Shown piece by piece: positions 14-44,089 of a DNA stretch of 64,000 bases. The stretch is from Cyanidioschyzon merolae (taxonomy: Eukaryota), in the NCBI GenBank assembly GCA_000091205.1, contig AP006483.2; one strand, 5' to 3'. The position numbers and the translations under genes are program-made. Positions within the stretch are counted from its first letter, which is position 1; the number at the start of each line of letters is the position of its first letter. The notes under the pieces are model-generated. The model did not search any database and was not told the origin of the DNA. It saw only the letters and a program-made list of their open reading frames with translations.

Positions 14-1372
14 TTGTCACCACGTGAGGCGTCAGTATCAAGGGGGAACCTGACTGCGGAAGCGATCGAAACCCTCCAGTCGTACCTGCGCATCGACACT
101 GCCCAGCCACAACCTCAGTACCGTAAGGCAGTTCGCTTCATCAAGCAGGCCTGCAAACGAGCTGGTCTTGAAGGTTTCCACCAGTTCTCGTTTCAGCGTG
201 GTCGACTCGGGGCGGTCTGTAGTGTCCAGGGACGCGAGCCGCACCTTGGAGCGGTGGTGCTGAACTCGCACATTGACGTCGTGCCGGCCGAGTCGTCCGC
301 CTGGCGCCTGGCGCCTCCTTTCTCAGCAGCTATTGTCGACGGAAACGTGGTCGCTAGGGGCTCACAAGATATGAAGACGCAAGGAGTGCAGTACCTGGAG
401 GCGCTGCGTCGGCTACGCGCACAGGCCGGCGACAAGTGGCCTATGCGGCGAACGGTCCACGTGCTCTTTGTGCCGGATGAGGAGGTCGGTGGTCGCACGG
501 GGATGGCTTCGCTGGTGAACTCCAGTCTATGGCGTGATACATTGCGCCCGGCAGTGCTGATCGACGAGTGTCTTCCCGAGACTCGCCTCGGTGTCTACAA
601 AGTATGCTATGGCGAGAGACAGCCCTGGTGGATGACCATTCGAACGAGCCATCACACTGCGCATGGCGGAACGCTCCCCGCAGATACGGCGATTCAACGT
701 CTTTTTGCGCTGTTAGACAACGTACTTGCGTATCGAGAGCAACAGCGCCTTGCTGTAGAGAGCCAGAGGAAAGCGCTGGGCGAGGTGCTTGGCGTCAATG
801 TGGTCCACTGGGCCAGCAGCGGCAACGGGAACGCCACCAATGTCATCCCGAGTGATGCAGAAATCCGACTGGATATGCGCGTCCCGCCACATATGTCTGA
901 ACTGGAGGTACTTGCGCTGTTAGAGGAGTGGACACGAGGCTCGTGCAACTGGCACTCGCACAACGGCGAACTTTTGTGTGCGAATGCTACGTACCGTATC
1001 CAGTTCATTGATCGAGTCATTGCACCGTATCGCGAAGTGGTTGACGAGGCCGAGTCTATGCTCTATCGGGCGATTGCCATCGCAGGAAGAGCACGAAACA
1101 TCAGTCTCGAACCGTTTGTGTTCCCCATGAGTACGGACTCGCGGTATGTGCGTCAGGCGGGTGTCCCAGCGTATGGTATCATGGCGCTGGACGGGGTCCT
1201 GCAGGGAGCGCAGTTACATCAGCCTGATGAGTCTGTGCCACTGACTGCGTTCGAGCGAGGTATTTCGTTTTACATGGAATTGGTGCGTCAACTCGCCGAG
1301 GAAGCGCACTGGGAAGCAACCGCAGACGTTGCGAACGTAACTGCCCGTCGGCATACTTCGGATGAACTGTAG
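14..1372 (+). CDS. Aminoacylase-1-like M20 family metallopeptidase (N-acyl-L-amino-acid amidohydrolase); 5' end runs off the window
   Basis: 452-aa continuous ORF. M20/ACY1 signature motifs are NSHIDVVP..WRLAPPF and ARGSQDMK. The N-terminus YLRIDTAQPQPQY aligns near residue 10 of animal ACY1. The frame is open to position 1 with no in-frame ATG, so the start codon lies upstream of the window. Confidence 0.7.
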   Translation: MSPREASVSRGNLTAEAIETLQSYLRIDTAQPQPQYRKAVRFIKQACKRAGLEGFHQFSFQRGRLGAVCSVQGREPHLGAVVLNSHIDVVPAESSAWRLAPPFSAAIVDGNVVARGSQDMKTQGVQYLEALRRLRAQAGDKWPMRRTVHVLFVPDEEVGGRTGMASLVNSSLWRDTLRPAVLIDECLPETRLGVYKVCYGERQPWWMTIRTSHHTAHGGTLPADTAIQRLFALLDNVLAYREQQRLAVESQRKALGEVLGVNVVHWASSGNGNATNVIPSDAEIRLDMRVPPHMSELEVLALLEEWTRGSCNWHSHNGELLCANATYRIQFIDRVIAPYREVVDEAESMLYRAIAIAGRARNISLEPFVFPMSTDSRYVRQAGVPAYGIMALDGVLQGAQLHQPDESVPLTAFERGISFYMELVRQLAEEAHWEATADVANVTARRHTSDEL

Positions 1373-1445
1373 CAGTGGTGCGGCATCGACGTCGTCGGTC
1401 GCATTATGGTGCGGATGTCCCGAATATGATCTTGAGTACCGCATT

Positions 1446-2492
1446 CGCGGTAGTAGCGAATCGCGGAATATCAGTATCGTTCCTGCAACCATTGCCCAGC
1501 AAATCCTTCCCAGTGTACCAGTACGGCGCTGTCGCCTTGGTGCAATGCTGAACACCACCGTACCCGTGCCAGGCTCCAGGCGGGAATCCAATGCCGTCTA
1601 TCCCGGGGTACGGATTCATTGGCATCGAAAGCCTTGCACATCCCAGCACAATGCCAATAACGTGTACCAAACAATCACCTTAGACGCCCGCTCGAGACAC
1701 AGCCGCTGGACGCCCCGAATGCCCCAGACTCTTCTTCCGAATGGTGATCGAGGTGTCCAGGTCTCGGTTCAGAGCGAAAACACTGGCCGGCACGGCGGCT
1801 ACTGGCATCACACCCTAGCAAGCATCTCACCAGGTCGAGTCCGTCGGTACATGACACTCGATCAGCTTACCGTACACCACAGAGTGTACCGGGCTCCGTT
1901 CTATCCGCATCTTGTCAGCCTGATTCAACGAGAACTCATGCTCGTAATGCAGGTATGTCGCCCTGGAGGCATCCACGGGTGTCTAACAAGAATCAGTCGC
2001 TGCACTTATCGTCCGGTCTCGTCCACGAGACGCGAATGGAGGCCACGCGCACTGCAACCCGTGCACCGTCACAGGCTACGACTCACAGAGGCGTCTTGCT
2101 AGTCACTTGGCTTCGTGCCGCTCACGGAATAAGTTCGTGAATGCACGCTCCTCGCTGCCGTACACGAGACGCAGTCTAGGACTCCAGCACTCTATCATGT
2201 ACGCCTGTCCAGGGATCGTCCGCAGGAGCCTGCGGGACGCTGAGGCACGCGCTGAAGCGCGGAATCCCTCGCATCAGTCTTCGTGTTTTTCGGTGGCATT
2301 CCGGTGAGCGGACAGCGCCTACATCAGGCGCGCTCCACACGGACTCGGTTACTCTTCTGGGTTTCGACTCTCGTTAGAAACGCTTTGGAGCTTGCCTCGA
2401 GTGTGCTGCAATCATTAGCATCGCTACTCGACGCGCCACTGTATTCGGGATCAGCTGGGCAACGTCGTTCGACGTGTTGCCAGCGTACTGCA
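1446..2492. repeat. Copy 1 of a ~1.04-kb dispersed direct repeat (LTR-like or segmental duplication)
   Basis: Near-identical to 7275..8323 (7 aa differences over ~215 codons, ~98-99% nt identity). Identity begins at cgcgg...tagcgaatcgcggaatatcagtatcg and ends at ...ccagcgtactgcatc. No recognisable coding content. Confidence 0.85.
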
Positions 2493-4477
2493 TCTCCTGT
2501 CGTGAACGTTGGCTGCAGGGTCGCAACAGATCTCGATCAAAGTATTCCAGATACATGTGAGCAGCTGGTAGCTCTGGTCCTTCAATTCCGAAAAGCAATT
2601 GCGTGATAGAGGGCGGCATGCCAAGAGAAGCTGGGCAAGCCATCCTCGAATGACAATTTCCACGATTCCCAATGACGTGCGGAATCTCACGTTTTGGAGT
2701 ATCATCCCGGTTCATGTATCGAAGCATGGAGTTCTTGACAACGATTTGAGACTGGTGCTTGCGCACCCGCATGTCGCCGTTAGCGTCATTCCCCGTTGTT
2801 TTTTCGAGATCAGCCTTGTCTCCGTTGTGCGATGGTTTTCTGCTCTTTTCTCGTCTCCGCCTGCTCCTCACTTACTTGGCCAGGCAGCGTGGATGTGGTC
2901 GCTGGACTCTACACCCGACCTGGTTCCTCGCGATTCAGGTAGGCTCGATGGACAGCTGGGCTGATGCGTGCCCTCTGTATATACGTATGAATCTACTATT
3001 CATCAAATACCTTTTTGTCACCGTCTCCGTCGCGAGCAAGCCCAAAGACAGATGCGCATCATGCCGCTTCCCCGCAAGCCCGAGCAGCGGAGCGAGCAAG
3101 CGAGCGAGCGGTCCAAGACTGATCAAGGCAGAGGTCGGCTTGTCGGAGAACGGCTTCCCCATGGGTTTCGTTCCCACGAATGCGAACGACTGGTCCATTG
3201 ATCAGTGAACGTCAAAATGGCGTCACATAACAGCGGAGATGCTATCGACTTGATTGAAACAGGGATAACACGCTGGCTCGAAAAGCAGCTCATCACGAAT
3301 CTCAGCGATGTACTCCACGAGCGCGTTTGTGTGATGAACAGCGACACTGTCTTACAGCGGGACTCAGACGTATAGCGAGCAGCCGCCCCAGAATGTGCAT
3401 CGATGAGCGATGTGGTGTTGAGCGACTCTATCTGTCCAGGGATGTATAGACGAAGACGCGATTGACTCGCTGCTCGGGGATGCTGATGTCGATGCGCTCA
3501 CCTGCCCCTTCTCCACGAACCGTTGTGTGCTCAGTTTTGAGTACACGGATACAGGTCTCATCTCTCTCTGAAATGGACGTCCATCGAGTGAGACGAACAC
3601 CGGCCGTCGACTGGAAAACGCATGCGCGTTTCACTACGAACTCACTCACGTGATGCTCAACAAACGACAGTCTCTCAGGGAAGCACGTCCTTCTCTTTCC
3701 GCAAACGTGTCCCTCTATCACACGTTTGAACGAACGATACGGAAACGTTCATACGCTGGCTCCTTTGGAATTATTTCATGGATAACGGATGGAGTGAAAT
3801 TGATTTACGACAGGACAGTCACGCGTATACAGTTTGGTGCGTTCTGTTTGCGATGCCCGACATTCAACCCAGGGAGTTCGAGACGGGCGCTTCATCCACC
3901 ACCTGCTGACCGTAGAATGACTAACTTGCATCCGCAAGACAATTTTTAGCATCAGCAGCAGTGACAGCATAGAGTTTTTTCTGGCCTTTCCCCAATTCAC
4001 AGGATCCATTAGTTGCGTAGCATACCGTCGAGGAAAAAACAATAACGTCATATAGGGTGTACCGGTATCCACGGACCAGCATTCACTGCTCTGAACATAA
4101 CGCTTTGGACGGGCAGCATTCGTCATGCTAGCGTCCGTCTCACCTTAGATTCCAGCGATAAGCTTTGGCGTTCGTTCCGCGGACTGGAGCCGCTTTCTTC
4201 ACCATGACACCTTTCGGTAAACGCGAACTATTCGACGGGGCCAGTTACTCCGTTCCGCTGCGATATCAGAAAAAAGCAACACGCTCTACAGCGCGCAGGA
4301 TAGTACCTGGCGTCGACAAATCAAGACCTCGAAGCACGCGCACTCGCCACGAAGAGCCAGCAACCTTGATTTATATGGACTGAACAGTACAACGGCACAG
4401 CAAAGCGTGAACGTACCTCGAGCTGTACCCGATGAAGACTACTGCCTAACCGTACGAACCTCTGTAGTTTTTCCGTC

Positions 4478-5060
4478 GCCGCGCTGCGCTCTAACGAAAG
4501 CACCTGTGGACGCGTTTACACTCATTCAGCGTATGAGGTTCCAGAAGCACCGAACACAAACCCCAAATAAGCACCCCTGGCTAGCTCCGCATACTTCTGC
4601 GCTATTCCCGTGCGTACACTGCGCTTTGGGAAGCACCGGTGGACGCGTTTACACTCATCCAGCGTATGGGGTTCCAGAAGCACCGCACTCAAAACCAAAA
4701 ATAAGCACCCCTGGCTAGCTCCGCATCCTTCTGCGCTATTCCCGTGCGTACACTGCGTTTAGAGAAGCACCGGTGGACGCGTTTACACTCATCCAGCGTA
4801 TGGGGTTCCAGAAGCACCGAACACAAAACCAAAAATAAGCACCCCTGCCTAGCTCCGCATACTTCTGCGCTATTCTCGTATGTATACTGCGCTTTGGGAA
4901 GCACCGGTGGACGCGTTTACACTCATCCAGCGTATGGGGTTCCAGAAGCACCGAACACAAAACCAAAAATAAGCAACCCTGGCTAGCTCCGCATCCTTCT
5001 GCGCTATTCCCGTGCGTACACTGCGTTTAGAGAAGCACCGGTGGACGCGTTTACACTCAT
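4478..5060. repeat. Tandem array, 134-bp unit x ~4.3 copies
   Basis: The gtggacgcgtttacactcat motif recurs at 4506, 4639, 4773, 4907 and 5041 (period 133-134 bp) with a few substitutions per unit. Confidence 0.85.
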
Positions 5061-5270
5061 GATCGTGCCCGACCCCAGCGACGACGACGGCAGCGGGTAC
5101 GCGCTGGGGGCGCACAGCGAGTCGACAGCGCCGCACCGCAGCACTCTGTAGCAGACGCGCTACCGTCTCGAGCAGCGTAACGTCGTCGCACGAGTGCCCC
5201 AACCGGTGTGCAGTGTTTTGTGGACGACAACCCGTCTTATACCCTTCGCCGTAACTGGGCTCATGAACTC

Positions 5271-6230
5271 ATGTTTATTGGTCCTATAGGTGCACTAGGT
5301 TCAAACCGGGGCTCGCCTAGAGCAGCAAGCACCCGTCCTAAGCCGTCTGCAGCTGCAGGAAGCCGCTGTCGTTACTGCCGGCACCTGAGGACGGCGAGTG
5401 CCAACCAGCGCTTTTGGCAACAAGAGTACTCGGGGACCGGTCCGGGGGTGACAAGACGCTCGTCTGCTGCGCTACGACGCAGGTGTCGTGGAACACGCTG
5501 GACGCTTGCAGCACCGACGCCTGCACGACGGCCTGGTGAGCGGTTTGGACGTCTCCACTTTCTGGGGCGACAAGCGTTGCTGGGGACGTGTCGGCCTCTA
5601 ATAGAGGCACCTGCTCATAACTGTCGACGAATTGCTGCTGCAGTGCAGATTAGTGCACCGATTGCTGTTCTATGGAAGGTACTGACAGACTATAATCACT
5701 TGGCGGAGTTTATTCCGAACCTTGCTGTGTCCCGTACGTGCCCGCATCCGAGCGGCGGAATTCGGCTGCAGCAGGAAGGTATCCAGAACGTTTTTGGGTT
5801 CCGTTTTCGCGCCGCAGTGCTCATGGACATGAGTGAGGTGGTAGGCAACCCAGACGAGGTGCCGCAGCGACGGAGTATCTATTTTGACATGGTTCAAAGT
5901 CGGGACTTTAGTCGCTTCGAGGGTGAATGGTATCTCGAGGAAATAAGAGAAACCGCAGACGATGCTGGGAGCGTATCACCAGCAGAGGAGGATCGTGCAG
6001 CTGCCGAGGGCGGTGACGCTACACATCCTGTACCCAGTACGATCCTAGGCTACGTGGTTGAGATCGTACCCCGTCATATGGTTCCCGTGCGATTGGTAGA
6101 ATGGCGCATTCGGGAGGATCTCGTACCGAATCTACTCGCTGTGAAGCGCGAAGCTGAAAGAAGATATCTTGAAGCGTACCGATCGGAAGCGATGCTGCAA
6201 GCGCAGCGAGAATCACCACCTTCGGGCTGA
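5271..6230 (+). CDS. SRPBCC (START/Bet v1-like polyketide cyclase-dehydrase / COQ10-like) domain protein with R/S/A-rich N-terminal presequence
   Basis: The domain region ISAPIAVLWKVLTDYNHLAEFIPNLAVSR ... SIYFDMVQSRDFSRFEGEWYLEEI matches the Polyketide_cyc2/COQ10 fold pattern. The ORF opens at 5208 (GTG) and the first ATG is at 5271. The N-terminal ~110 aa look like a transit peptide, so the domain assignment is more secure than the start. Confidence 0.5.
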   Translation: MFIGPIGALGSNRGSPRAASTRPKPSAAAGSRCRYCRHLRTASANQRFWQQEYSGTGPGVTRRSSAALRRRCRGTRWTLAAPTPARRPGERFGRLHFLGRQALLGTCRPLIEAPAHNCRRIAAAVQISAPIAVLWKVLTDYNHLAEFIPNLAVSRTCPHPSGGIRLQQEGIQNVFGFRFRAAVLMDMSEVVGNPDEVPQRRSIYFDMVQSRDFSRFEGEWYLEEIRETADDAGSVSPAEEDRAAAEGGDATHPVPSTILGYVVEIVPRHMVPVRLVEWRIREDLVPNLLAVKREAERRYLEAYRSEAMLQAQRESPPSG

Positions 6231-7274
6231 ACGACTGCGGTTTTTGTCGGGCGTGGGTGCATACTGAGCTAGTGCGCAGGACAGCGTGCCGGCATGACGC
6301 TGCTTCCAAACTCGACGCTTGTCTCGTATAGTCGAAGATGCTGATCCGAACACTGGGCGTCCTATGGCTCCAATACGGGAACCAGATCGATTCGAATGCA
6401 CACGAAGGTGCTGCTGTGTGCACCAGAAGTTTCCCTCCTGCCAGCATGGGAAACGAGGATATGCTATTTAGCCTGATCATCGCGCAGAAGACATGCAGGG
6501 AGCATCACGCTCGACCGCAGATACCCAACTCCTACAGACAGACCGAACCAGGAAACAGTATGTGATTGCTGCTTCTTGGCACATGCAAGCGACGATGAGC
6601 ACGATAGCGCGACACGGGTCTTGGATTCTTTGGCACAGTGTGTGTCTCGCCAAGCTGTGTATCAGGCATTGGCAAAGCAGCAGTCACGCCAAAACCTGTG
6701 TCCCGAGTCACACTCTTGCGGCAGGTCGTGCTCGCGTAAACGGTTTCAGCTCTAACACGTTTCCGAAGTTGGAATCGTGGCAGATACGCATACTTGCAAA
6801 AACTTTCATCCATTGCGTCGCGCCTTGGTAAAGTAACGTAGCGTTGCTTTCGGTCCGAAAAAGCGCCGAGACGATGCCGTCGTCAAGACTCATACATCAT
6901 TCCAGAATATGATGCAGCGAGCGTGACTTGCCTCATTGCGCTGTGGATGGGTCATCAGTTAGCGCTGATCCACGTTCGGATGGAACCTAGAGAGGGCGCG
7001 TCGCGAGCGCAGCGCAGCCTGGGCGCCAGAGCCGCTGTCCAACACAAGGAGCGTGCAGCCTCGCTTGTATTGTCTCCTGAGAGATCTGCGATATGCGCAG
7101 CTCGCACGGCTCAACGATACAAGGCGCAAATATTAAGAGGAAAGAGCGAGCAGGTACAAAGCCCGTATCCGACAGCTACGGATTGTAGAGCGAAAAGATG
7201 GGATTCAAAAGGAAATTAAAAAAGAGAGATGTGTCGTTATAGAAAATATTCCGCAACCACGCCTCCATGCCTAT

Positions 7275-8323
7275 ACGCGGGAATAGCGAATCGCGGAATA
7301 TCAGTATCGTTCCTGCAACCATTGCCCAGCAAATCCTTCCCAGTGTACCAGTACGGCGCTGTCGCCTTGGTGCAATGCTGAACACCACCGTACCCGTGCC
7401 AGGCTCCAGGCGGAAATCCAATGCCGTCTATCCCGGGGTACGGATTCATTGGCATCGAAAGCCTTGCGCATCCCAGCACAATGCCAATAACGTGTACCAA
7501 ACAATCACTTTAGACGCCCGCTCGAGACACAGCCGCTGGACGCCCCGAATGCCCCAGACTCTTCTTCCGAATGGTGATCGAGGTGTCCAGGTCTCGGTTC
7601 AGAGCGAAAACACTGGCCGGCACGGCGGCTACTGGCATCACACCCTAGCAAGCATCTCACCAGGTCGAGTCCGTCGGTACATGACACTCGATCAGCTTAC
7701 CGTACACCACAGAGTGTACCGGGCTCCGTTCTATCCGCATCTTGTCAGCCTGATTCAACGAGCACTCATGCTCGTAATGCAGGTATGTCGCCCTGGAGGC
7801 ATCCACGGGGGTCTAACAAGAATCAGTCGCTGCACTTATCGTCCGTTCTCGTCCACGGGACGCGAATGGAGGCCACGCGCACTGCAACCCGTGCACCGTC
7901 ACAGGCTACCACTCACAGAGGCGTCTTGCTAGTCATTTGGCTTCGTGCCGCTCACGGAATAAGTTCGTGAATGCACGCTCCTCGCTGCCGTACACGAGAC
8001 GCAGTCTAGGACTCCAGCACTCTATCATGTACGCCTGTCCAGGGATCGTCCGCAGGAGCCTGCGGGACGCTGACGCACGCGCTGAAGCGCGGAATCCCTC
8101 GCATCAGTCTTCGTGTTTTTCGGTGGCATTCCGGTGAGCGGACAGCGCCTACATCAGGCGCGCTCCACACGGACTCGGTTACTCTTCTGGGTTTCGACTC
8201 TCGTTAGAAACGCTTTGGAGCTTGCCTCGAGTGTGCTGCAATCATTAGCATCGCAACTCGACGCGCCACTGTATTCGGGATCAGCTGGGCAACGTCGTTC
8301 GACGTGTTGCCAGCGTACTGCAT
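7275..8323. repeat. Copy 2 of the ~1.04-kb direct repeat
   Basis: See copy 1. The two copies have the same orientation and lie 5.8 kb apart. A purine-rich tract (7190-7235) sits ~40 bp upstream. Confidence 0.85.
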
Positions 8324-9550
8324 CGCTGTTGGAGGCGTTATTCGGTCAGCATTGACCGAAGCACTCGAGTATCGTTTCAATTCAGTCCACGCCTGTGTCG
8401 GGATAGAAAGGAGCGCTTCCTCGAACATGAGCAGGCGCTCTGAATATTGCGTCGTTTTCTAATGTCATCAATACCTGGCTCTGAGTTTTTTGACTGCGAC
8501 TGCATCCTTTTCATCAACCGCGGTTGCCAGCAAGCGAGCGATACTACTGGCACTGTTATAGACGCGATTCGCTGCTTCCGGTTTTTCCCAACACATGCCA
8601 TGCACAGACAGATGATTCGATACGTGTGCTGCCTTTTATATCTATTTTGTTGTGCGTTTACACCCTCAGTGCCGCCTTCGCAGCGGTGACACATGACTAT
8701 GGGAATGCGTCCCTTGTGTCCGTCATACTATCTCCTTCGAGAACTGAACTGCGGCGCGTGAAGGCATGCTGTATTGTTCAGCACATGCTCGTGACGGCTA
8801 TCGAAATCGCTCCTGAGCGCTGTCCACGGTTTGCGCACCCTGTGCCGTACGCCATGATCACGACTTGCTCTGAGCGATGCGTCGTCAACGAGTCTGCTCA
8901 CTGCATCAACAAGCGCACTGCATCGCATTGGATAGAGCGTTTAGGGTATGCGACGTGCTCCACGATGAAATACGTACCGAAAGGAACAACCAGGCCGGAG
9001 CGACTCGAGAATTTTCGATCCATAGGCATGAGACTGGGAACCTCTCATCCACGGACGACGTCAACTAGAATGCCTCGTCGATTCAAAAAGTTCGATTTCC
9101 TGTGCCAACGAATTGCCTCGAAGCACAACATCGAAAATCTGAAAAATGCTGCATTCCAATATGCTGCACGCGAGAAGAGGTGAACACGCACGGGAGGCTT
9201 GTATGGATGCGCTTCTTCACAGTATCGGATTTTTTTCCAACGCTTGTTCCAGGGGGGTGCGAATCCTCTTGACGCTGGTGACGACACGAATTCCAGTGCA
9301 AGAACATCGAAACAGCCACTCCCAAGAGACAACCGAGCATCCCAAAACGATCGTTGAGTCCATAGGCCGGTAGTGCTGCACGTCGAATGTCGAGACTGTC
9401 CATCTAAAACACAACTGTAAACTTATGAACAAGATAGCACAGACCGCGTCATTCAGTGTCGCACTCGAATCCGACGTGTACGCAGTGGAGCAACGGACGC
9501 CATGCTACCGGTCGAGTCGATATCGAGACTCCGCACGTCCACGATGCACA

Positions 9551-12298
9551 TCATTCCAGAGGTGTTGCTCGTGGATCTCCAGTTTCATCAAGCTCCTCGG
9601 CACTGGTCCCAGGAACCCAGCGCGGAAACACTCGCTTGTACAAGCTCATGCAAACCGTATCACTGTGCAGGATCATTCCATCAAACGAGGCTTTCAGCGC
9701 TCCATGCGTACCGAGCGATTCCTCGATGCGTCCCAGACGACCGTGTTTTGTCCACAACGGTACGTGCCGGTAGTATTTCACATCTTCGGGATTAAAGAAC
9801 ATGTAGCGCACTGTTGCACGATTCTTGTGGGCGCGGTACGGTACCCCTGTGAGCACGATCCGTTTCAGCACAATCCGTTCGGGATTCGCACCCAGCACAG
9901 AGCCCCGAGCAACCAAGGCCGGCAGAACTGGAGTAGTGGCGGCAGTGCCTGCTGGACCAGTGCCGTGTGATGGGCGCGTCACCAGCACTGGTGCTGGCGG
10001 GAACGTCACCGGTGCGTAGAGCGAGGCTACGCTCCAGCGACCGGGCAATAGATAGCGTTCATAGCGATGCTTGTCGCATTTGGAATCAGCCTCGGAGAAT
10101 ATAGGACGAGCGAGAAGTCGGCGAAAGCCAATGTGGAAGCAAAGCAGCTGTCCAGCATGCACGAGTCCATTGTCTGGACAGGCCAACGCCGGGCTTTCGT
10201 TGTCTTCGGTGCTGGTCAAGTTGGTCATGACGTGATAGCGCTGTACCAGGCACTGCAGCACCGTGGGACGTTCTTCGTACGAAAGCAGGCACGACGCAAC
10301 CAGAGGGCCAGGCCAGCTCTCTAAGCGGCGCGCCTTCGGCTCGGCAATAGCATCCAGTACGAACGCGACAAAGCAGTGTGATTGCACGACTCCGTGGCAG
10401 GTTGCGTCCCGCGCTCGCTGGAACGCCTCGCGCGTCGCTCGTTGGAAGTGCTCGAACTGCACAATGCGTGCATACGCTGGCGGTAGACCAACGCTCGGAT
10501 CCCAGGGTGTTTTCCGAAACGAAGGCAACGGTCGATAGTTTGCGTACCGTTCCCGAACAGGGCAATCGGTGGGTGTATCGACCTCATCCGGAAAGAGGAG
10601 CTCGTCGCGTTCGACCTGCTGGGTATCGATCGCATCGAGCGAAGGTGTCTCCTCTGAAGACGTTTCCGCCTTTTCGGATGCAAGAGGCTCACGAGTCGCG
10701 CGTTGCCTGGAATGCGGAGCACTCGACGCATCGCTTGCAGTCCCTATGTCTGAAGCGTCATCGGATACCGAGTCGTCGTCGTCGTCGTCGTCATCGCTCG
10801 CAAGAGATGCGCTCCTGCTACCTGAGCCCATGCACGAATCCTCTGCTGCTTCCATTGGGGGTTTATCGTGCACCACAGCGACATTCTTTGTTGACGGTTC
10901 CAGAGGTACACCAGCCGCCGGTACACGGCCGTTCTGAGAAGGCATCTGGGAACGCTCGCTGGTTTCGAGCCATGCCGACTCGCACCTAAACGTTCCGGTT
11001 ATCGTTTCTACACGATTTTGGATATGAATGGCGCATCTTACCCGTGGGGGTTCGGTCTGCGACACGCTCCCTTGCCGGCACTGCATACCGGATAGAACGG
11101 CCGCCTCCATGGGGGATGACGATCCAAATGCCAGGCGCTCTGGAGCGTCATCTCCAAACGCAGGGAGTCCAGCAGCATCGGTTCCATCGGGAATGCGGAC
11201 TACAGGGTCCAAGCCTCCATTCCCAGCTGTTGGAAACGCAAATTTCGCACCATCAGATATGTCCATGGACGCGGGGTGATCAGTATACCCCCTGGGTGCC
11301 ATGTGTCGCGCATATGGCGCCTCGGCCCGCTCTAGACCCGCTACCACAAACGTGCCTACCCCAGTGATATGCAGTTGTTGGTGGACGCTGGCAGCGGCAC
11401 CCCGCAGCCATCCATAGAGCCGCACTCGACGACACGGTGCAGTCGGTGCCCGCTCACTGACGACACGTTCCACCAGGAGATACGAACGACTCGCTCGCCA
11501 GCGAATGGCTCGACGTTTGCCATATTCGAGCTGTCGTCGCGAATGCTCGACCTCGTCTGGATGACTTAGTACTCGAATGCGCACAGGTTCCTCTTTGGCA
11601 TCCAGAATCGACAGAGCGGCGAGACGTTGGTGACACTCGGCTAACCAGGTGGAGCTATCGGCAGCATGGGCAGAGCTCGCGTGCGCTCGGCCCCTGAATG
11701 GATGCTCGGAAACACCGGGGTGCTCTGCATCACATCGGTCAGCGTCCATCAGAGACTCGAGGGTGTTGGTGGCTCGTGGAAGCGCCACAGCGACGAAACT
11801 CAGGAGGCCTTGCGCTTGGATCGCCGCCAACCAGGAGTCGGCGACATCGTGCAGTCCCTCACCCTCGCCGTACACCAAGAGACCCAGATCAGCAACCTTG
11901 GCGGCGTCAAGCACCGCTTCAAGAGGAGCTTCAGCATCAAGGCATATCCACTGATGTACTAGACTGACTTGACGGGCGCGTCTGCGGGCCACTGTGTACC
12001 GCAGTCGATACCAGGGCGCAGTAGCGGGTTCGCCGCACTCCGTTGCCGTTGCCAGTGCCGTTGACTCCAACTGTTCGCCGGTCCGGCCACAGATTTCGGT
12101 ATATCCCCATTGCTTAAAGCAGTACGTCAGTGCCGGTGCGAGGCGTTGTGAAGAAGTGAGGCCCAAGACCACGATCAAAGTGGGGCTCGCGCCACTCGCC
12201 TCAGGACTTGTTGATACAGGTCGCTTGTTCGCACGCCGCTGTTTCCGTGCCAGGACCCTTTGGTGGACAACTGATCGCTGTCTTTTCCTCCCGGCCAT
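9551..12298 (-). CDS. TSR1: Pre-rRNA-processing / 40S ribosome biogenesis protein TSR1 (Bms1/Tsr1 family)
   Basis: 915-aa single ORF with an ATG at 12298. Lys/Arg-rich N-terminus, a middle HITGVGTFVV motif, and the C-terminal RIBIOP/AARP2CN-type domain (VLTGVPYRAHKNRATVRYMFFNPEDVKYYRHVPLWTKHGRLGRIEESLGTHGALKASFDG). No G1-G4 GTPase motifs are present, hence TSR1 rather than BMS1. Confidence 0.75.
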   Translation of the reverse strand: MAGRKRQRSVVHQRVLARKQRRANKRPVSTSPEASGASPTLIVVLGLTSSQRLAPALTYCFKQWGYTEICGRTGEQLESTALATATECGEPATAPWYRLRYTVARRRARQVSLVHQWICLDAEAPLEAVLDAAKVADLGLLVYGEGEGLHDVADSWLAAIQAQGLLSFVAVALPRATNTLESLMDADRCDAEHPGVSEHPFRGRAHASSAHAADSSTWLAECHQRLAALSILDAKEEPVRIRVLSHPDEVEHSRRQLEYGKRRAIRWRASRSYLLVERVVSERAPTAPCRRVRLYGWLRGAAASVHQQLHITGVGTFVVAGLERAEAPYARHMAPRGYTDHPASMDISDGAKFAFPTAGNGGLDPVVRIPDGTDAAGLPAFGDDAPERLAFGSSSPMEAAVLSGMQCRQGSVSQTEPPRVRCAIHIQNRVETITGTFRCESAWLETSERSQMPSQNGRVPAAGVPLEPSTKNVAVVHDKPPMEAAEDSCMGSGSRSASLASDDDDDDDDSVSDDASDIGTASDASSAPHSRQRATREPLASEKAETSSEETPSLDAIDTQQVERDELLFPDEVDTPTDCPVRERYANYRPLPSFRKTPWDPSVGLPPAYARIVQFEHFQRATREAFQRARDATCHGVVQSHCFVAFVLDAIAEPKARRLESWPGPLVASCLLSYEERPTVLQCLVQRYHVMTNLTSTEDNESPALACPDNGLVHAGQLLCFHIGFRRLLARPIFSEADSKCDKHRYERYLLPGRWSVASLYAPVTFPPAPVLVTRPSHGTGPAGTAATTPVLPALVARGSVLGANPERIVLKRIVLTGVPYRAHKNRATVRYMFFNPEDVKYYRHVPLWTKHGRLGRIEESLGTHGALKASFDGMILHSDTVCMSLYKRVFPRWVPGTSAEELDETGDPRATPLE

Positions 12299-12495: not shown

Positions 12496-12612
12496 CGGAC
12501 GGACAGACAGACAGATAGATAGAGAGGCAGAGAGGCAGACAGACAGACAGACAGAGAGGCAGAGAGGCAGACAGACAGACAGAGAGATAGATAGAGAGGC
12601 AGAGAGAGGTTT
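12496..12612. repeat. Compound microsatellite (CAGA)n/(GATA)n/(GAGAGGCA)n
   Basis: cagacagacagatagatagagaggcagagaggcagacagacagacagagaggcag... Confidence 0.9.
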
Positions 12613-13952: not shown

Positions 13953-16900
13953 CGGTTTCGACGGCTGGAAACGCACCTCTCATGCATTCATGGAGATGCT
14001 GCTGGTGACACGTGTATCGCCTCTCGAACGTGGGTGCTTCAGGCACTCATTTGAACTCTAGAACATCGACACGAAGAGTGATCCTGGTAGCAGAAGTCGT
14101 ATTCATGCACGCAGGAATGAGCGAACGGGTCTCACGGGTGGATCAGCGTGTTCGACGCACCAGCGCGTCCTCGCGGCTGCAAGTGACGTCCCCAAAATGA
14201 ATTGGATCATGAGCAACCTCGTATTCATGGACGCTGGAACACGAGGAATGCGTCGACGAGTGCATCAGTGTGGATGGCGTACCGCTGACTTGGCCCCGCT
14301 GGAAACTCCTCTAGAGCTGCCGCTTGAGGCAATCAGGTATCCGCGCGGAACGTCTTGAACGCGCAGTGCATACCACTTTGAGTTTCAACACCGAGTGTGC
14401 GGGTAGGCTCATGATCGCTTGTAGCATTTTGCTTAGAAAATATTCGGACTTGACCAAGTATTGTTTTTTCTTGCGTCATATTCGAGACTCCTGGCCCAGA
14501 GTTTTGAGGTAAGTGGTGTCGCAAACGCGTGCACGACGCGGGGTATGTGCGACGTGCCTGGCCTCGGCGGCCCTGTTTGGCAATCAGACCCGCTCGCGAC
14601 TACGCCCTTTGCATACCGTCGTCTGGAGTTCTGAAATATGACCTAGAAGCTCCGCATCTCGTTGAGATAATCGTAAAACGGAAAATGATCGCGAGGTGCC
14701 CATGTCGCTCTGCACGCCAGTGTGCATGCTTTATACCCGTATGCGAAACTAACGCAGCAGGGTCCGCGTACTCGGGCGTACAACGTAGATCTTTGGTCTG
14801 TGGGTTCTGTCGTCAGTGCCAGCCTTTGCGGGATTTCTGGACTGCAGTTCCTCTTCCTATCTGTTATCTTCGGCCGGAGGTAAGCCGGTTTCTGCTTTCC
14901 CTGCCAGCTCGATTGTCAGCAGTTGAGGGATGTCGATGGCAGCGTTCACGTCCCGATGTCACCGCTTTCTGCCCTGAGCGACGTATCCCATACGTAGGCA
15001 AAAGGTGCGAGCGATGATTTGCTTGATGAGTTTCGATACGTATAGTCCATGTTCGCGCTTCGCAGCGGAGACCCATTATTGTATGTACGTACTCCATTGT
15101 GTACACGAGCGCGACTCTGCAAAGAGCCGCCTTATGGCCTCGTAACGCTTGATCCATTGATTGGTACAAGTGATCAATGGGTACTGAGTGCTCCGCTTGG
15201 TGCCTTGCTCCGTTTCCGTGCACAGTACCGTGCTCAAAAATCATGGGTTTCATTCGGACAATCCCCTGGGCGAGTGCGCTGTCCGCTGTATACCAAAGCG
15301 CACACTATTCAATTCGATAACTCGTTACCAGCTTCCGAGCACGCTCGTCGTATGCTGTGTACGCTCCCCGCGAAACGTGTCCACGCGCATCAAGGGCATC
15401 AAGGCATGCCTCCAATTCGTGGGCAAAATGTGCACATGGCAGAGCGACTTGCGAGAATGCGTCCCAGACTTGTGAGACTCTTTTCGGTTTCGTTCGCACG
15501 CTCGTCGTTCTGTTCTTTTTATGTGCCTCCATCCGGTGAAACCAAGATGAGAGACGCGCGAGTACCACATAACGACAGTGGGTGCATTTTGGTGAATTTG
15601 GCAATCATGGCTATGAAGCGTCGCCGGTGTCAACAAGTCGTGTTCTTGTTGTTGGTGGCTTTTTTGTGTTTCAGGCTCCGCTTTGGGTCTAACGGAGGCG
15701 CAGGTGTAGAGATTCGCGCTACTGCGGCCTGCACCGATGCTCACCGCACTGCAGACCAACTTCTCGAGGCAAACGCATCTGCTTGGACATGGGAACTCCA
15801 CGTATTTCCTTATCTGAGCTTGGGGAGCGTTTCCGCTCCGAGACGGATCGTAAAGTGTCCGCGACACTCGCGTTGACGACCATGCATACTGGTATACACA
15901 GCACCGGTCTCGATAGCGGGCAGCAGGCCTCGTTGCCGACGTGCGAGCATCTCGCTGGTCCACATTTCCTCGCCTTTCGCATCTTTCTCTGTGCTCCGCC
16001 GATCTCGTTTCACCAATGGTTCACGAATTGCTTCGAATTTTTGTACAAAAAATTTACAGTCCACTTTATGAACGTGATAGCGCTGCTCAGCTCCTATTTG
16101 CTCGCCTCGAGTCTCTTGGTCTCCATCAAACGATGTTGTACCGACTATGCACAAGCGATTCCCTCTACAACGAAACGAAAAATGCACGAATCGAGGTGCT
16201 GGTGCAAGCGACCTGGAGACGCATTCGGAGCTGCATAAAAAGTCTATACTCATCAGGGGCGCTCTGAAAAAGCATACCAGACCCAGAAGCACAACGTCCT
16301 GCCTAGGTGGACTACACGCCAGCGGCAGCTGCATGTTCTCCTGAGTATCTTCGAGTCTGGGGAGTCTTCGATGACGTTTTCTCGTGTTCTCCATATGCGC
16401 CGAGTCGATGCTCTTCGGGATAGCGCCGGTTCTGAAGAGGTTCCTCATGCCGTCCCAGTCTAGTGACAGAATCGTCGCTCGTTTGCCAGCGCTGCATCGT
16501 ATCCATCACTGGCCGATGGCAGTGAGCACCCAGGTTATTCAGGACCGCAGTGCGTACTTTTCGGTCTTCGTGCTTGTCTGGAGAAAGCAGACCCCAGAGA
16601 ATTCGATGTGTCTCCTCGCTGTTCTTGCGTCGTGATGAAGGACTCTTCACAGTCATCGATCACTGCTGCCCAATGCCATATCGTCGATGGCAACAAATAG
16701 AGGAGCATGTGCCTCTCGAACGGAGTCGATTCTTTGACGTGACACGTTCATTGAGCTTTCGGTATGATCCTATGGACGAATCTTCACGAGATGACGTCAT
16801 GTTTGCTCTCCGTGTCAGTCCCGAAGCGCGAAGAACTGCACCCATTCGTTGCCATGGAACAGAGAGATCGAAACCTTGAGGAATGCGTGATATGAGTGTG

Positions 16901-19628: not shown

Positions 19629-20228
19629 GCCTCACCGACACCGTTCAGAACCAGGCGGAAGCTGCAGAAGCTGGATTCGCCACCGAAAACCCGACGGACG
19701 AAAGACTTGAGTCACGTCGGACCCGTCTCTGGAATAGAGAAAAAAGGTTTTGGCCAGTTTATCGTGACGTTGTCGAGCAGGCGTGCGCTGCGCCTCAGGG
19801 CGTGTGCTCCAGAGGCAACGCCAGTGCCGATTGGTGCCGGCGCACCGTATACCGCACTCAACTGAAGCGTGTTCCACACAAAGGTGTGTGGAAGTCGATG
19901 CTTTTTTCGTTGTATGTAGCAGACGCTATCGCAGGTCGTTCATTAGACGTGATAAAAAAATCTAAGGGAATGGTATGGGGGTGCTATGCGGAAATCCCGG
20001 AAGGCTTTCATTGCCGGGTTGAACAAAACTGGAAAGCCGTGCCGAGCATAGAGGAACGGGAAAGGACGATGCAGCAGAAGCAATCGCGCGAGGCCGGACG
20101 TTGAAAAGGATCTCGAAAGACGACAGTACGACGGGATGGTGGTGAAAGCCTCTTTTCTTGGCCATAGCTAGTATCCCTACAAAAAAAAGTTACGAGAAAC
20201 GATCAGAAACCTTGTCGAGTCGTATTCA

Positions 20229-20783
20229 ATGAGTATTATTGAGGCTTCTTCGGGACTGGTGCATATGGCGAAGGAGATGTACGACAATGTGACGGACATT
20301 CGAAGAGTCAAGATTCCGGACGAGTTTTTCGACAAGACCTTTATTCGTCACCTTGTGCTTGGTACAGGGGATGCGCGGGGTGAAAATGAGCGGGTGCACG
20401 TCCTCCACGAAAACTTTGCAGAATTCCGCTTCGAGGGTAATCGATACAGGGGTGACGCGGATGCTTACATATACGGGGCGATGAAGTATCTCACGAATCT
20501 GAAGAACCATTTGACAATGAACGTCGAACGTTTCATGATACGCCCCGTGTTTGCACTTTACGCGGGCATCTCTCGCAAAGGAATATGGGCAATTATCAAT
20601 GGCTTTACAAACAATCCCCAGCATGAAGATGAGGTTGAATTCGTCGACAAGAAGGCGTCACACAGGAGAAGGAATGAAGCTTCTGTAATCCGTGCGCCTA
20701 CTAAAGAGCACCGCGCAGAATTGGGACTGGCGAATCCAGCAGAAAAGATATCAGAGTTGAAAACAGATACGGAAAGATACTAA
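20229..20783 (+). CDS. Fanzor/TnpB-like nuclease, segment 1 (N-terminal, putative WED/REC-like region)
   Basis: ATG at 20229, 184 codons, ends at TAA 20781-20783. The next segment is in a different frame that opens at 20855. The join could be a short intron (for example GTAATC at 20685 to AAG at 20866) or a frameshift. Confidence 0.45.
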   Translation: MSIIEASSGLVHMAKEMYDNVTDIRRVKIPDEFFDKTFIRHLVLGTGDARGENERVHVLHENFAEFRFEGNRYRGDADAYIYGAMKYLTNLKNHLTMNVERFMIRPVFALYAGISRKGIWAIINGFTNNPQHEDEVEFVDKKASHRRRNEASVIRAPTKEHRAELGLANPAEKISELKTDTERY

Positions 20784-20866
20784 TATCTCATCCTGCGGTA
20801 TTTCGTGTTTTTGGACCGCGAGCTCGAACGCAAGGCGGAGATGATGCTAAGTGAGGAAAAAATGAA

Positions 20867-21646
20867 GTGCGGGAGAGACGGAAGGCTTTCCGAATGGGGG
20901 AGCGCTCCAACATCGTTCCGTTGTGCAACATCAAGTCACATTTTGTGCGTATTGATTCCGGCGTCCTTTACGGCATCATGAAGGGGATCTGTCCGGGGTT
21001 CGATGTAAGGAAGACAGAGTTCTCCGGTGAAACCCAGGAGACGTACTGGAAGAATATCTTCGATATCAAACGTCTCAAAGTGAGCAAGAAAAAGAAATTC
21101 ACTGGGATGATAGAAACTGATGGACTAGCCATATGTGTACACTATCGGCGGTTCAAGACAGATCGGCATGTTCCGTCTTCGGCTTTGCCCGAGACGAAGC
21201 ATGAAGATGAGAAGGAGGAGGATCCTGCGATGCAGAACGTGCAGAAGAACGACTTTTTCGTTGGCGCGGACCCCGGGAACACGAACATCGTAACCATCGC
21301 AGTACGCAGGCGTGCGGAAGATGGTACTGATGGTACCTTGCGTCGGAAAGAAATGCGTCTATTGAGATTCTCTAGAGCGAGATACGATCGAGAATGGGGA
21401 ATCATGAATGCGAGGAGGAAAATCGAGACTTGGAATGCAGGAGTGAAAGAGCACCTGGAAGCTATGAGCGAAGTGACGAGCCGCGAAGCAGACTTGAAAG
21501 CTTTTCGGGAGTCCATGGAAGTTCGCGTTGCGCATTGGGAGGCGCTGTGGGCGGCGGAGTATACAAAGCCCCGGTGGGCTCGTTTGCGAATGAATTTGTA
21601 TTTTGGGAAACAGCGTGCATTCGCGAATTTTTTTTCAATGAGTTGA
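20867..21646 (+). CDS. Fanzor/TnpB-like nuclease, segment 2 (RuvC-I)
   Basis: Contains [21 protein letters not shown] (RuvC-I Asp). It overlaps segment 3 in another frame. A T8 homopolymer at 21628..21635 is a candidate frameshift point. Confidence 0.55.
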
Positions 21647-22130
21647 GCGCCTTGAAGGAGGATGAAAGTCAGAGGCTCCTAGTAGCATACGGAGCAGGGC
21701 GATGGAAGATCCAAAAAGAAACTATGCCAGCTCCAACGACGAGAACATTCAAAGAGTGCGCAAGGCGCTTCGTTACGATACCTGTAGATGAGTTCCGAAT
21801 GTCCTACACACACCATGAACTGGGATGTACACTTCAGAACGTCGAGATGGAAAAGTGCCAGCGGAGCCCTGAGGAGGATATAGCAAAATATGGACCGCTG
21901 GCGGAAGAGCAAATGGAAAGGAGAGCGAAAGCTCGAGGACTACTTGCATTAGTAAGTACAACCAACGATGGCAAGAAACGGATGGAGTTTGTGAATCGAG
22001 ACTTGAACGCCGCGATCAATATACGGGGATGGGCGGTGATGGAGCATAAACCTCCAGACAGGACAAGAGTGAACTTTATCGGACAATCACTTCAAGTCGA
22101 ACTATATGAGAAAAAGTTGAAACCAGTAGT
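21394..22130 (+). CDS. Fanzor/TnpB-like nuclease, segment 3 (RuvC-II, zinc finger, RuvC-III); ancestral stop at 22128-22130
   Basis: Contains LLVAYGAGRW ... FVTIPVDEFRMSYTHHELGCTLQNVEMEKCQ ... KKRMEFVNRDLNAAINIRGWAV. Comparison with copy B (aaaaagccaagccgatag) shows a 1-nt insertion in A (aaaaagttgaaaccagtag). This shifts the ancestral TAG out of frame, so the track ORF reads through to 22365. Confidence 0.6.
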
Positions 22131-24816: not shown

Positions 24817-24861
<45 letters not shown>

Positions 24862-35526: not shown

Positions 35527-35547
35527 TGCACACACACACACACACAC
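35527..35547. repeat. (CA)n dinucleotide microsatellite
   Basis: gcacacacacacacacacacc. Confidence 0.9.
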
Positions 35548-38323: not shown

Positions 38324-41300
38324 GTGGAGCAATCGTGTTCACATGACCGGTGATTCGCTGCAGACGGGTTCAGGAAACGACGGGGCAGCAGGAGAAATGC
38401 ATCGCCAATCGGATGCGGTGGATCGCGGCACCCTTCTGGTTGACAGACCGTTTACGGAAATCAGGGATGCCCTGTTGTACACCATGGGTAAACGCAGTGC
38501 CGTGATCGGTGGAACACCTGTGCGAGGACGCATTTTTGCTATTTATGGATGGCTTTTTTTGCGGATAGTCAATAAAAGGAAGGTATTCTATTGGTTGGAA
38601 AAAGTTCGCTGAAAGACTTGATGCCGTCACTGCGAGTCTGCAAAAAAAGGTCTTTTTTGTCCAAGTCAGTTCTTCTACGCTCAGCAAGCGGATGAAGCGC
38701 ATTTCTCGTTGTCCATATTGTAAAGGCCATGCACCCTAGACGGAAGTTGTTAAACCGCATCAATACGACTGTCTTCGGGTATATGCATTCTACTCCATAG
38801 ATTGTTTGACGAATGCTGATACAGAAGCCAAAGATTCTGAACTTTCCGAAACAATGACACGAATGGTGAAGAAGAAACGGGCGCGGAGAAAGAAAAAAGC
38901 GCGCTTCTCTGGGAGATCGTCGGGCGTTGAATGATACACGGCAGGTTCTATCATGTAACGTGACCGCCTATAGCAGGAGCGACGCGTATTCGTCTCGTTC
39001 GATGGGACATCATTCGGGAGAAATCGCAGTCTTCTATGTAGATGCTTAAAGAGAGGCAATCTGCTGCTCGCTAATATGAGAGAAGCGAGCGTGACGAAAC
39101 CATGACCCCGAACGGCAATCATACCGAGTGGGCGCCCAGCATTCTCTCAACGGACAGAGTTGTTGAACGCCTCCGGCTTTGTTGAAGCGCTCTTCATGGC
39201 ATCTCCTTCCAGCACTCTAAAGTCCTGCTATAAAAGAAAACCACATTCCATCAAGAAGAAACGGTGAAAGCGTATGCAGCTGAAACTGGCTTTGATCTGC
39301 TCTTCGTGTCAGCGTATTAGACTTGCTTCCGTCTAGTCAAAGACGTCTCCTCTGTTGCCAAACGCCATTTCTATGTCCAGCGCACGATAGACGGCTCGTT
39401 CGCATCCGTGACACCAAAGTTCTGTGGCAAGTCGCTCGCTGTTACCTTCACCAGTCCTGAACTACTGTATTGCCCCCGAGCCCGTACACGACATCGAGCG
39501 TAGAGGTGCGCTTCGGTCTGTGCGCGTGATCGCGACGCAGAACGGAACAAAAAACCCTGCTGGAATACGCAGTGCATTCGTAGAGGAGGCGCGCTTCAGT
39601 GCAATCGATCATCCAGATCGTCTGAGAATCTAAGAATCAAAGAGATGCGGAGTGTAGCGATCACAAGCGTGACATCCCACCATGTAAAGAACACAGCGAC
39701 AAACGAGATGAGGTAGAAACCATCCGACAAAGGAGAGGCAGATCCCGCAGAAAAACAACGAGGACGAGGAGGGACAGCGATGAAAACCTGTCGGAGCAAA
39801 ATAGTCAGTTTGAAACCACTGTCAAGGTTTCGCTCCGAAAAATGCAGCGTGGGGATTCTGCAAAACAAACCGAGATGCAGAGCGCCATGATGGATAGTAT
39901 ATAGCTTCGTACTCGATCAAGGCTCGCCTAGCTTGCCTCACCATGAAGCGTCATCTCGAGGAACGATTTCTAGACGTTCCGGATGCAGGGCTCCCATCTG
40001 TCCATATTCCCCTGGAAGTTCTCGATCAGACCTTCGTGCGCTAACACAACTGGTGCTCGGCACAGAAGCGGCAGTACGGCCGGGATCGGAGGATCAGCGA
40101 TTTCGGCACGCGCTTCTCAGAATACCATGACGAGTTGCCATGCCGTATCGGCGATGGGCACAATCCACTGCGCAGTTGCCGAAAATCATCAAAGCAATCT
40201 CGAAAACCGTATGCGAGATAATCAAGAGGGTTTCATAGAAAGCACGCAGTGGGCGTTGCAGCCTCACCAGACTGACCCAAACATGAGGAACTTCATGAAA
40301 GCGGCTCTCCAGTTCGGAGATTACACGGGCGTCAGAATGGCTCACGCGAAGGAGCTTTGGCGGCAGTGCATGATACTGCGCTTTGGATCACCATCGGTTT
40401 CGGTTGTGCGGAGGCAAGAAGCTTGGATTCGCCAATTTGTTCAGCGAGCTGGAAAAGGAAACGATCGAGAAAACACGGCGCGAGCTCGTGGTAGCCTATG
40501 GAGCTGGACCTGCGGTACCAGGCGCGCGCCGCACCCCTGGCCCTTCGACGACAGCAAGCAGCAAGTGCAGGCATCGATTGTAACCGATTCTCATCCTTGG
40601 ATTCAGAAGGATCGAACCGCATCACGAGCACGGTCACACGCTGGAACAGGTAGAGAAAATGAACATGAAACGGATCCAGATGCACGAAACGGTAAACACT
40701 AAGATGGCTGAATATCGATTGGTGAGGCAATCGAGATTTCCTGGCTTCGTATGGTGTGATTCCACCAGCAGCGGAGCGCGCGAGCTCGCCATGCACAACC
40801 TCGTGAACGCCTCGATCCACGTCCGGAAATGTCGTGTGTTTCCGGAGCGCCCAGCAGCATTGCATCGAGCGAACTTTCAAGGAAATCACTGAGTATTCAG
40901 TGTGGACGTAATGCTGAACCGCTGAAGAGTCTCGATGAAAAACCAGCGGCCGTCAGAGGTGCATTGGATGCGCATCTAGAGCAATGCAATGGACTGGTAC
41001 GCGTTCGTAATGCAGAAAGGAATGGATTCCCGATATATACAACGAGAAAGGTTCTCTCGGACAATTGGTGATCGCTCACGGTAGTCCATTACTCGAAATT
41101 CCTCTGTGGCTGCTTTCATTGTCTGCAGAGAGGGATCGCATCGCACGTAAGATCAAGAAATTATAGACGAAGCATCCGGGGCCTACTGCCAGCGAATCTT
41201 CATATTCAAATGAAAGTCCATGGAATGGTGGCAGCGGCACTGGCGGTGTTAGATTTATGGAGACTGGAGGACATAAGGCGCAACCATGAAGGCTCCCTCG

Positions 41301-43836: not shown

Positions 43837-44089
43837 TGGTATCCCTCGTAGAGATGCTATGGATGCTATTCTTAAGAGTGATGGTATGAATGTTGACGAT
43901 GATTCTGCTTCCCGTGTCGCTCGCAAACGTTCGTGCGATTGCAGCAGCGCGTTCCATGTGCACAGCTACGTATCCGGTTGGAGATTGTGCGAGACATTGC
44001 AGGAGTCTCACGTGCGTGCATGTCGTCAGGCTTGATGACGAATCGTTTACCATGGAACATTGCTGCATCTTACGGACGTTCAATGCAAT

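Follow-up and report, generated by a model that had tools for sequence, protein, structure and literature searches.

Fanzor1 elements have already been described in Cyanidioschyzon merolae. The family CMe-1A comprises about 150 copies of a ~3-kb Fanzor1 element without terminal inverted repeats (TIRs) and with target-site duplications (TSDs) left undetermined, and Fanzor1 has also been listed in white spot syndrome virus (WSSV) (Bao & Jurka 2013, PMC3627910). In the finished reference genome of strain 10D, 253 copies of a 3.2-kb interspersed element were counted, with a truncated open reading frame (ORF) weakly similar to the WSSV protein WSV486; 26 non-LTR elements and 8 class II elements were found as well, and no long terminal repeat (LTR) retrotransposons were reported (Nozaki et al. 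2007, PMC1955436). The WSV486-like repeat is likely the CMe-1A element, although the WSSV gene is not called WSV486 in either paper. Here we analyse a 64-kb stretch of chromosome 1 of strain 10D (64,000 nucleotides, hereafter the window), part of this finished genome, in which two near-identical direct repeats of about 1 kb, R1 and R2, lie on either side of a gene for an SRPBCC-domain protein. An earlier interpretation made from the letters alone (the sequence-only reading) had taken the geometry of this pair for that of LTRs. We consider it probable (roughly 0.8) that R1 and R2 are two ends of a dead Fanzor1-type element around a resident gene, kept alike by gene conversion, and that no LTR element is involved. 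The structure is an ordinary one, and the Fanzor1-type family is already described in this genome.

The repeat pair and the dispersed elements E1 and E2

The features on which the comparison rests are listed below. R1 and R2 denote repeat copies 1 and 2, E1 and E2 the A-type dispersed elements, and L001 to L017 the comparison contigs.

1443..2494, minus strand: R1, the 3'-terminal 1052 bp of E1 (self-blast; nhmmer to E2)
7273..8324, minus strand: R2, probably the same end of the element in a 5'-truncated copy, with sharp boundaries and no flank homology; aligns to E2 only at 41107-40119
1443..4083, minus strand: E1, an A-type dispersed element of 2.64 kb (nhmmer to E2), apparently an internally deleted, decayed Fanzor1 element
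38491..41107, plus strand: E2, an A-type element of ~2.6 kb, inverted relative to E1; besides these two, no A-type element lies in the window (nhmmer)

In a blastn self-comparison, R1 and R2 aligned without gaps over 1052 bp at 98.67% identity (14 mismatches, offset 5830 bp), and there was no third copy at E<1e-10 within the window. The earlier description of direct repeats of ~1.04 kb and ~98–99% identity was accurate, and its coordinates are off by no more than 3 bp. Of the 14 mismatches, three fall in the first 11 bp (1445, 1451 and 1453), and the high-identity core at 1454-2494 (1041 bp, 98.9%) matches the unit as first described. The repeats begin with AT(T/A)CGCGG and end with CTGCATC, in agreement with the observation that they lack TG..CA ends. 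Their boundaries are sharp, and no homology was found past the repeat edges that would be the sign of an older, longer duplication.

Each of the four junctions between repeat and flank is seen again in independently made assemblies, from JGI, ENA and Logan data, of strains that are ~1–1.5% diverged. L006 spans the M20-peptidase gene on the left, R1 and the interior, and L008 spans the interior, R2, the right flank and the Tsr1 gene. Both R2 junctions are present in L008 and L011, and further junction support comes from L009, L010 and L004. The recurrence of these junctions led us to reject an assembly artefact in which a 1-kb block of the reference would have been duplicated falsely. The two copies moreover differ at 14 sites and the reference is finished (PMC1955436), which leaves such an artefact with practically no probability.

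The homology of E1 to E2 places R1 within a longer element. With nhmmer, 1457-4076 aligned to 41095-38520 in inverted orientation over the full length (E 1e-134), at a uniform identity of ~57% and with mismatches that show no codon-phase bias. Homology to E2 begins at 1456 in R1 and at 7275 in R2, 2–13 bp from the left edge of the repeat, and this edge is therefore taken as the 3' terminus of the element. Because the E1-E2 homology extends 1.6 kb beyond the right edge of R1, the repeat does not form a discrete terminal unit, and E2 itself is R-like at one end only, without a direct repeat at its termini. From its 5' end, E1 consists of a 5' region (4083 to 2830), a pseudo-ORF (2830 to 1640) and a ~200-bp 3' tail (1640 to 1443). 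Its sense strand is the minus strand of the window, and at its 3' end it adjoins the M20 gene, likewise at the 3' end. No Pfam domain was found in any frame of E1, and the ends of E1 and E2 carry only chance-level, non-homologous TIR pairs. The ORFs within the repeat (plus strand, 246/221 aa; minus strand, 88 aa and 165 aa) have no Pfam match, no homologue among 5.8 billion proteins (searched as one concatenated query) and no exact match on record. A live gene in the repeat was rejected on these results and on the lack of codon-phase bias.

The link to Fanzor1 came through a weak protein match, by tblastn, that led from the minus strand of the repeat to ORF 21394-22365. The RuvC-III-like motif LNRDLDTSITIR in R1 (1772-1737, minus strand) parallels FVNRDLNAAINIR in this ORF, and the C-terminal remnants of both R1 and R2 carry an NRDL..I.IR motif. 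The ORF is part of a nearly full-length Fanzor1 pseudogene at 20076-22116, probably a CMe-1A copy, which has hundreds of homologues at 55–80% in Cyanidioschyzon metagenomes and 1447 representatives at E<=0.001 in a global library. Two family profiles were built, A1 from a shallow family alignment and A2 from 54 diverse members. The 54-member profile has the conserved motifs GxDPGRxNI, AYGxAKF..GE and FVNRDLNAAxNIR, which we take to be the three RuvC motifs of TnpB/Fanzor proteins. The family profile matches the solved Fanzor1 proteins of Parasitella (9CF0, E 6e-21), Spizellomyces (8GKH, E 9e-12) and Guillardia (9CER, E 1e-4). Neither single sequences nor A1 detected the Fanzor ORF against Pfam or PDB sequences, and profile A2 alone succeeded. 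An AlphaFold2 model from the shallow alignment (pLDDT 32) was unusable. The remnants were mapped by hmmsearch of the family profiles against the six-frame translated window.

20076..22116, with a tail to ~22289, plus strand: nearly full-length Fanzor1 pseudogene of ~620 codons with two frameshifts (profile positions 7-623), including ORF 21394-22365
1641..2000, minus strand: Fanzor1 C-terminal remnant in R1, frame broken by stops (profile 506-613, E 2e-3; tblastn)
7474..7824, minus strand: Fanzor1 C-terminal remnant in R2 (profile 508-610, hmmsearch E 2.4e-4; tblastn E 1.3e-5)
2590..2805, minus strand: Fanzor1 N-terminal remnant in E1, just outside R1 (profile 8-79, A2 profile, E 6e-5), with its E2 counterpart at 39746-40044
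39746-40044: Fanzor1 N-terminal remnant in E2 (profile 5-101, E 6e-5 to 6e-4)
40392-40889: Fanzor1 C-terminal remnant in E2 (profile 449-614, E 2e-24)

Judged by these profile matches, the A-type elements appear to be internally deleted, decayed Fanzor1 elements, and each repeat would be the 3' end of such an element, i.e. the ~200-bp tail together with that part of the dead ORF which corresponds to the C-terminal RuvC region. E1 and E2 are dead, as their stops, internal deletion and neutral divergence indicate, and no function is implied. A census of the family in the window and 8.7 kb of flank gave two A-type elements plus the R2 fragment, one near full-length Fanzor1 pseudogene and four C-type repeats (described below). 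Directly downstream of the pseudogene lies the Brf1 gene (22408-25269).

In active systems, the 3' end is the site that encodes omega-RNAs. The evidence does not favour a functional omega-RNA in the 3' tail of the present repeats. The fold of the tail (1443-1700, minus strand) is no better than that of shuffles (z -0.56), a result that a decayed omega-RNA could still give, and the tail is more polymorphic than the remainder of the repeat (13 sites in 240 bp against 22 in 815 bp). Scans of the window found no Rfam families and no tRNAs.

The enclosed gene and the LTR interpretation

Between the repeats and on either side of them lie the following features.

14..1372, plus strand: M20-peptidase gene, the left neighbour (Pfam, synteny), with its stop codon 70 bp before R1
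4498..5060, no strand assigned: 134-bp minisatellite, 4.2 copies with 92% matches (TRF), upstream of the SRPBCC gene
5271..6230, plus strand, ORF open from 5208: SRPBCC (Polyketide_cyc) gene, resident (Pfam Polyketide_cyc, E 5e-9)
7190..7238, plus strand: purine-rich tract, 73% purine, ending 34 bp upstream of R2 (7273)
9551..12298, minus strand: Tsr1 ribosome-biogenesis gene, the right neighbour (ORF of 915 aa, 100% identical to C. merolae 10D protein BAM78737.1)

The SRPBCC-domain ORF and the 134-bp tandem array had both been recognised in the interior by the sequence-only reading, and Pfam and TRF confirm them. The SRPBCC protein is 100% identical in other strains. In L001, a contig from a distant relative (Tsr1 67% identical), the genes for M20 peptidase, SRPBCC and Tsr1 are found in the same order and orientation, and around SRPBCC nhmmer aligns the three coding regions only. 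The M20-SRPBCC spacer measures 1042 bp in L001 and 4104 bp in the window, an excess that approximates E1 (2.64 kb) plus the minisatellite (0.56 kb). Likewise, the SRPBCC-Tsr1 spacer measures 1027 bp in L001 and 3286 bp in the window, which approximates the addition of R2 (1.05 kb) and a B-type repeat (~1.1 kb within the spacer). Because SRPBCC has the same two neighbours in this distant relative, where no repeat DNA is detectable in the spacers around the gene, it is a host gene that has kept its ancestral position and not captured DNA. Collinearity with a relative lacking the repeats had been proposed as the mark of a simple tandem duplication; the collinearity of SRPBCC is real, but a simple tandem duplication is not supported.

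Over a longer distance (window 1-28126, L001 1-18039), the order of the M20, SRPBCC, Tsr1, acyltransferase and Brf1 genes is conserved, and probably that of DnaJ too, on L001 annotation only. The C. merolae region is ~1.5 times longer than its L001 counterpart, and in the two SRPBCC spacers dispersed repeats and the minisatellite account for the extra length. The minisatellite itself varies between assemblies, with 4.2 copies here, 3.1 in L004 (4064-4481) and 2.2 in L009 (2145-2439), a difference that could be a true polymorphism or an assembly collapse. Further intergenic tandem arrays are present at 43308-43836, 33728-33978, 63473-63698 and 12498-12607 (periods of ~70, 107, 112 and 32–40 bp), and minisatellites seem to be common in the spacers of the region.

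LTR derivatives, i.e. large retrotransposon derivatives (LARDs), miniature terminal-repeat retrotransposons (TRIMs) and solo LTRs, resemble this locus in that they present two long same-orientation direct repeats a few kb apart and no gag/pol coding capacity. R1 and R2 would then be the 1.05-kb LTRs of a non-autonomous LARD/TRIM-like retroelement with captured host DNA, or two solo LTRs. Such an origin would account for near-identical, same-orientation repeats 5.8 kb apart and for a purine-rich tract within 100 bp upstream of R2. The tract, as had been noticed, is real, but it does not abut the repeat: it stops 34 bp short of R2, and the intervening 34 bp are 44% purine. The interior is devoid of gag, pol and integrase, as the sequence-only reading had stated, and no retroelement domain was found in six frames of 1443-4497 or in the ORFs of 80 aa or more that lie between 4407 and 8355. 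The 4–6-bp TSDs that had been proposed as a check at 1446/8323 are not there. No direct repeat of at least 5 bp occurs at the junctions (+/-8 bp), either for the pair or for one copy alone, and the sole 5-mer found is displaced. As regards a primer-binding site (PBS) that would pair with a tRNA 3' end, no tRNA genes were found in the window or the comparison loci, and the sequence after R1 (TCCTGTCGTGAACG...) does not begin with TGG.

Further evidence against LTRs comes from what the repeat is part of and what it encloses. It lacks TG..CA ends, it lies within a longer element of which the other example, E2, has no second repeat, and it contains Fanzor1 remnants, which points to derivation from a DNA-transposon-type element. 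The gene inside is resident and syntenic in L001, where the spacers show no detectable repeat DNA, and the genome is reported to be without LTR retrotransposons (PMC1955436). With these observations the LTR reading is already effectively refuted, and we give it only a very slight chance. Its geometry had been offered as evidence of an LTR element, and a LARD-like derivative carrying captured host sequence had been suggested; neither proposal survives. The idea of two solo LTRs of one family was right in part: R1 and R2 do appear to be fragments of one transposable element family, but that family is Fanzor1 (TnpB-like), not an LTR family.

Origin and concerted evolution of the repeats

On the reading we prefer, that of two dead Fanzor1-type ends, the ancestral arrangement would have been a compact M20 peptidase-SRPBCC-Tsr1 order, both spacers of which were later invaded by dispersed repeats. 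The non-coding, 2.64-kb E1 would have come to sit in the M20-SRPBCC spacer, and R2, the 3'-terminal 1052 bp only, in the SRPBCC-Tsr1 spacer in the same orientation as E1. The apparent LTR pair would then be two homologous element ends, and its interior the rest of E1, the minisatellite and the SRPBCC gene. R2 probably arose as a 5'-truncated sister copy of E1, and efficient homologous recombination has presumably kept R1 and R2 near-identical since then.

A rival account of R2 is a plain local duplication at the DNA level, by ectopic double-strand-break repair or template switching, in which 1052 bp were copied 4.8 kb downstream and the match to an element end arose by chance. No copies beyond the two at this locus were found; no TSD is present; the boundaries are sharp without flank homology; and the family looks to have died long ago, given its stops, its neutral divergence and an E1-E2 identity of ~57%. 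All of this would suit a local duplication. However, the left edge of the repeat falls within 2–13 bp of the element 3' terminus, for which a random breakpoint has a chance of ~1–2% in an element of ~2.6 kb that borders on unique DNA. Truncated ends also recur in a sister family, in which 37784-38343 is a 3'-terminal fragment that aligns to the C-type 3' end. Because the intact edge is the element 3' terminus and such a sister-family fragment exists, R2 is probably a 5'-truncated sister copy of E1 rather than an arbitrary duplication, and we regard the latter as unlikely. In the unrelated fungal Fanzor family MCi-2 variable 5' ends have been described, as alternative 5' regions and not as truncations (Bao & Jurka, PMC3627910). 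The proposal of a recent local segmental duplication is borne out in that the pair is local and no other near-identical copy was found, but neither "recent" nor "simple tandem" fits, as the pair predates strain divergence.

Contigs from natural populations indicate this age. Metagenomes scanned with a degenerate 35-nt pattern taken from the repeat yielded four contigs, all from this locus, and no other recent copy of the repeat; an exact look-up of the SRPBCC protein added ten more loci (L008-L017). Across 13 repeat sequences there are 35 variable sites. R1 and R2 differ consistently at three of them (1445, 2080 and 2106) in every assembly examined, and ~15 polymorphisms are present in both copies. 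Within one variant group R1 and R2 differ at 10–14 sites, compared with 18–22 for the same copy between groups. This indicates concerted evolution of R1 and R2 by gene conversion and a duplication older than the divergence of the strains. Homologous recombination is efficient in C. merolae, which makes gene conversion plausible. Because the copies convert each other, their 1.3% divergence cannot date the duplication, and the insertion date that was to be estimated from a divergence of ~1–2% would be invalid. Repeat divergence is thus unusable as a clock at this locus.

Several points weigh against our interpretation. No hallmark of transposition (TSD, TIR or target motif) proves that R2 was inserted rather than copied locally. 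The Fanzor1 match within the repeat itself is weak (E 1e-5 to 2e-3) and is partly made by transitivity through E2, and the terminus of the family is fixed only within ~15 bp, resting on one other A-type element at 57% identity and no consensus. We infer both the copy number and how the elements relate to CMe-1A, the named consensus. The evidence for conversion comes from metagenome and Logan contigs of different samples, with linkage into single strains assumed, and the L004 repeat may be a consensus of both copies. Finally, the polymorphisms are enriched at third positions of the dead Fanzor frame (19/32, and 16/28 in a second count), an excess without counterpart in the E1-E2 divergence, which has no phase bias. 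A hidden gene behind this excess was rejected, as neither strand is open in that phase (~14 in-frame stops).

One contig raises a different prospect for the pair. L004 (Ga0080006_1125170, 5815 bp) is a closed loop of exactly one repeat plus interior unit with a 121-bp exact end overlap, and its repeat carries copy-2 markers up to 2425 joined to the right flank of R1. Recombination between the repeats could yield both features if the 5.8-kb unit existed as a tandem array or an excised circle in some natural populations, the reference being the minimal two-repeat form. If true, dead transposon ends would be switching the copy number of a host gene, in an extremophile whose genome is otherwise minimal. 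However, a de Bruijn assembler can produce a cycle from any collapsed direct repeat, gene conversion of R1 can give the same marker pattern, and the support comes from assembled contigs. All other assemblies fit a linear chromosomal structure; the ENA MEGAHIT contigs L009 and L010 break off one k-mer (141 bp) short of the repeat boundary, which is what a single repeat-interior-repeat arrangement in the chromosome should give. Amplification or excision in natural populations is therefore in our view rather doubtful.

Functionally, the two-dead-ends interpretation has a single consequence: owing to the direct repeats, the 5.8-kb SRPBCC cassette is a substrate on which deletion, duplication or excision can act. 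The main value of the interpretation is a corrected annotation, in which an LTR-like structure with a "captured gene", found in a model genome poor in repeats, would become two dead Fanzor1 ends around a resident gene. It also suggests that the Fanzor1 repeats of C. merolae include internally deleted and 5'-truncated derivatives that retain the 3' end. Public metagenome contigs sufficed to show that a 1-kb repeat pair evolves in concert in wild populations.

Neighbouring repeats and comparison with known systems

Further families of dispersed repeats occur in the region.

44069-45585, 58118-59609, 37784-38343 (partial) and 21815-22289, and 6919-8579 of L003, all plus strand: C-type repeats, mutually ~72% identical
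8392-9700, 14734-15328 with 16663-17232, and 34484-35591, and 916-2431 of L003, always plus strand: B-type repeat (nhmmer)

Only the last ~470 bp of the C-type repeats (Fanzor C-terminus plus tail) match the CMe-1A-like gene, and the ~1 kb upstream has no Fanzor1 profile match. The C-type repeats look like chimeric non-autonomous derivatives with a common 3' module. No Fanzor remnant was detectable in the B-type repeats. The B-type copy at 8392-9700 takes up most of the R2-Tsr1 interval and is unrelated to R2. The alignment of 9087-9698 with 34997-35591, both of B-type, appears to enter the 3' end of the Tsr1 coding sequence by ~150 bp. There is also a D-type pair at 34009-34476 and 48376-48860 (nhmmer E 1e-42), the first copy of which abuts a B-type copy.

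Among described systems, low-copy direct repeats under interlocus gene conversion behave like R1 and R2: there are two local copies with shared polymorphisms, more alike within a strain group than the same copy is between groups, and the gene that lies between them could be deleted or duplicated. They differ in that the present copies appear to be transposon ends and not duplicated genes, and no rearranged allele has been demonstrated here.

The prokaryotic TnpB elements of the IS200/IS605-IS607 group share with E1 and E2 a TnpB-type RuvC gene at the 3' side, the lack of TIRs and TSDs, and derivatives that keep their ends and lose coding capacity. Here, in contrast, the setting is a eukaryotic nucleus, no TnpA-like transposase was seen and the results for the 3' tail do not favour a functional omega-RNA.

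The closest likeness is to CMe-1A of the same genome, likely identical with the "WSV repeat", which like E1 and E2 is dispersed, ~3 kb long, without TIRs or recognisable TSDs, old and diverged, and has a Fanzor1 (TnpB-like, RuvC) ORF with a ~200-bp 3' tail as in the family of E1 and E2. Compared with CMe-1A, E1 and E2 are internally deleted, with only ~100 N-terminal and ~160 C-terminal codons, and have a 1.25-kb 5' region without match to the Fanzor1 family profiles. They are also far more diverged, with 57% identity between them and ~29% amino-acid identity to the CMe-1A-like ORF. A near-identical local pair of such element ends has, to our knowledge, not been described before.

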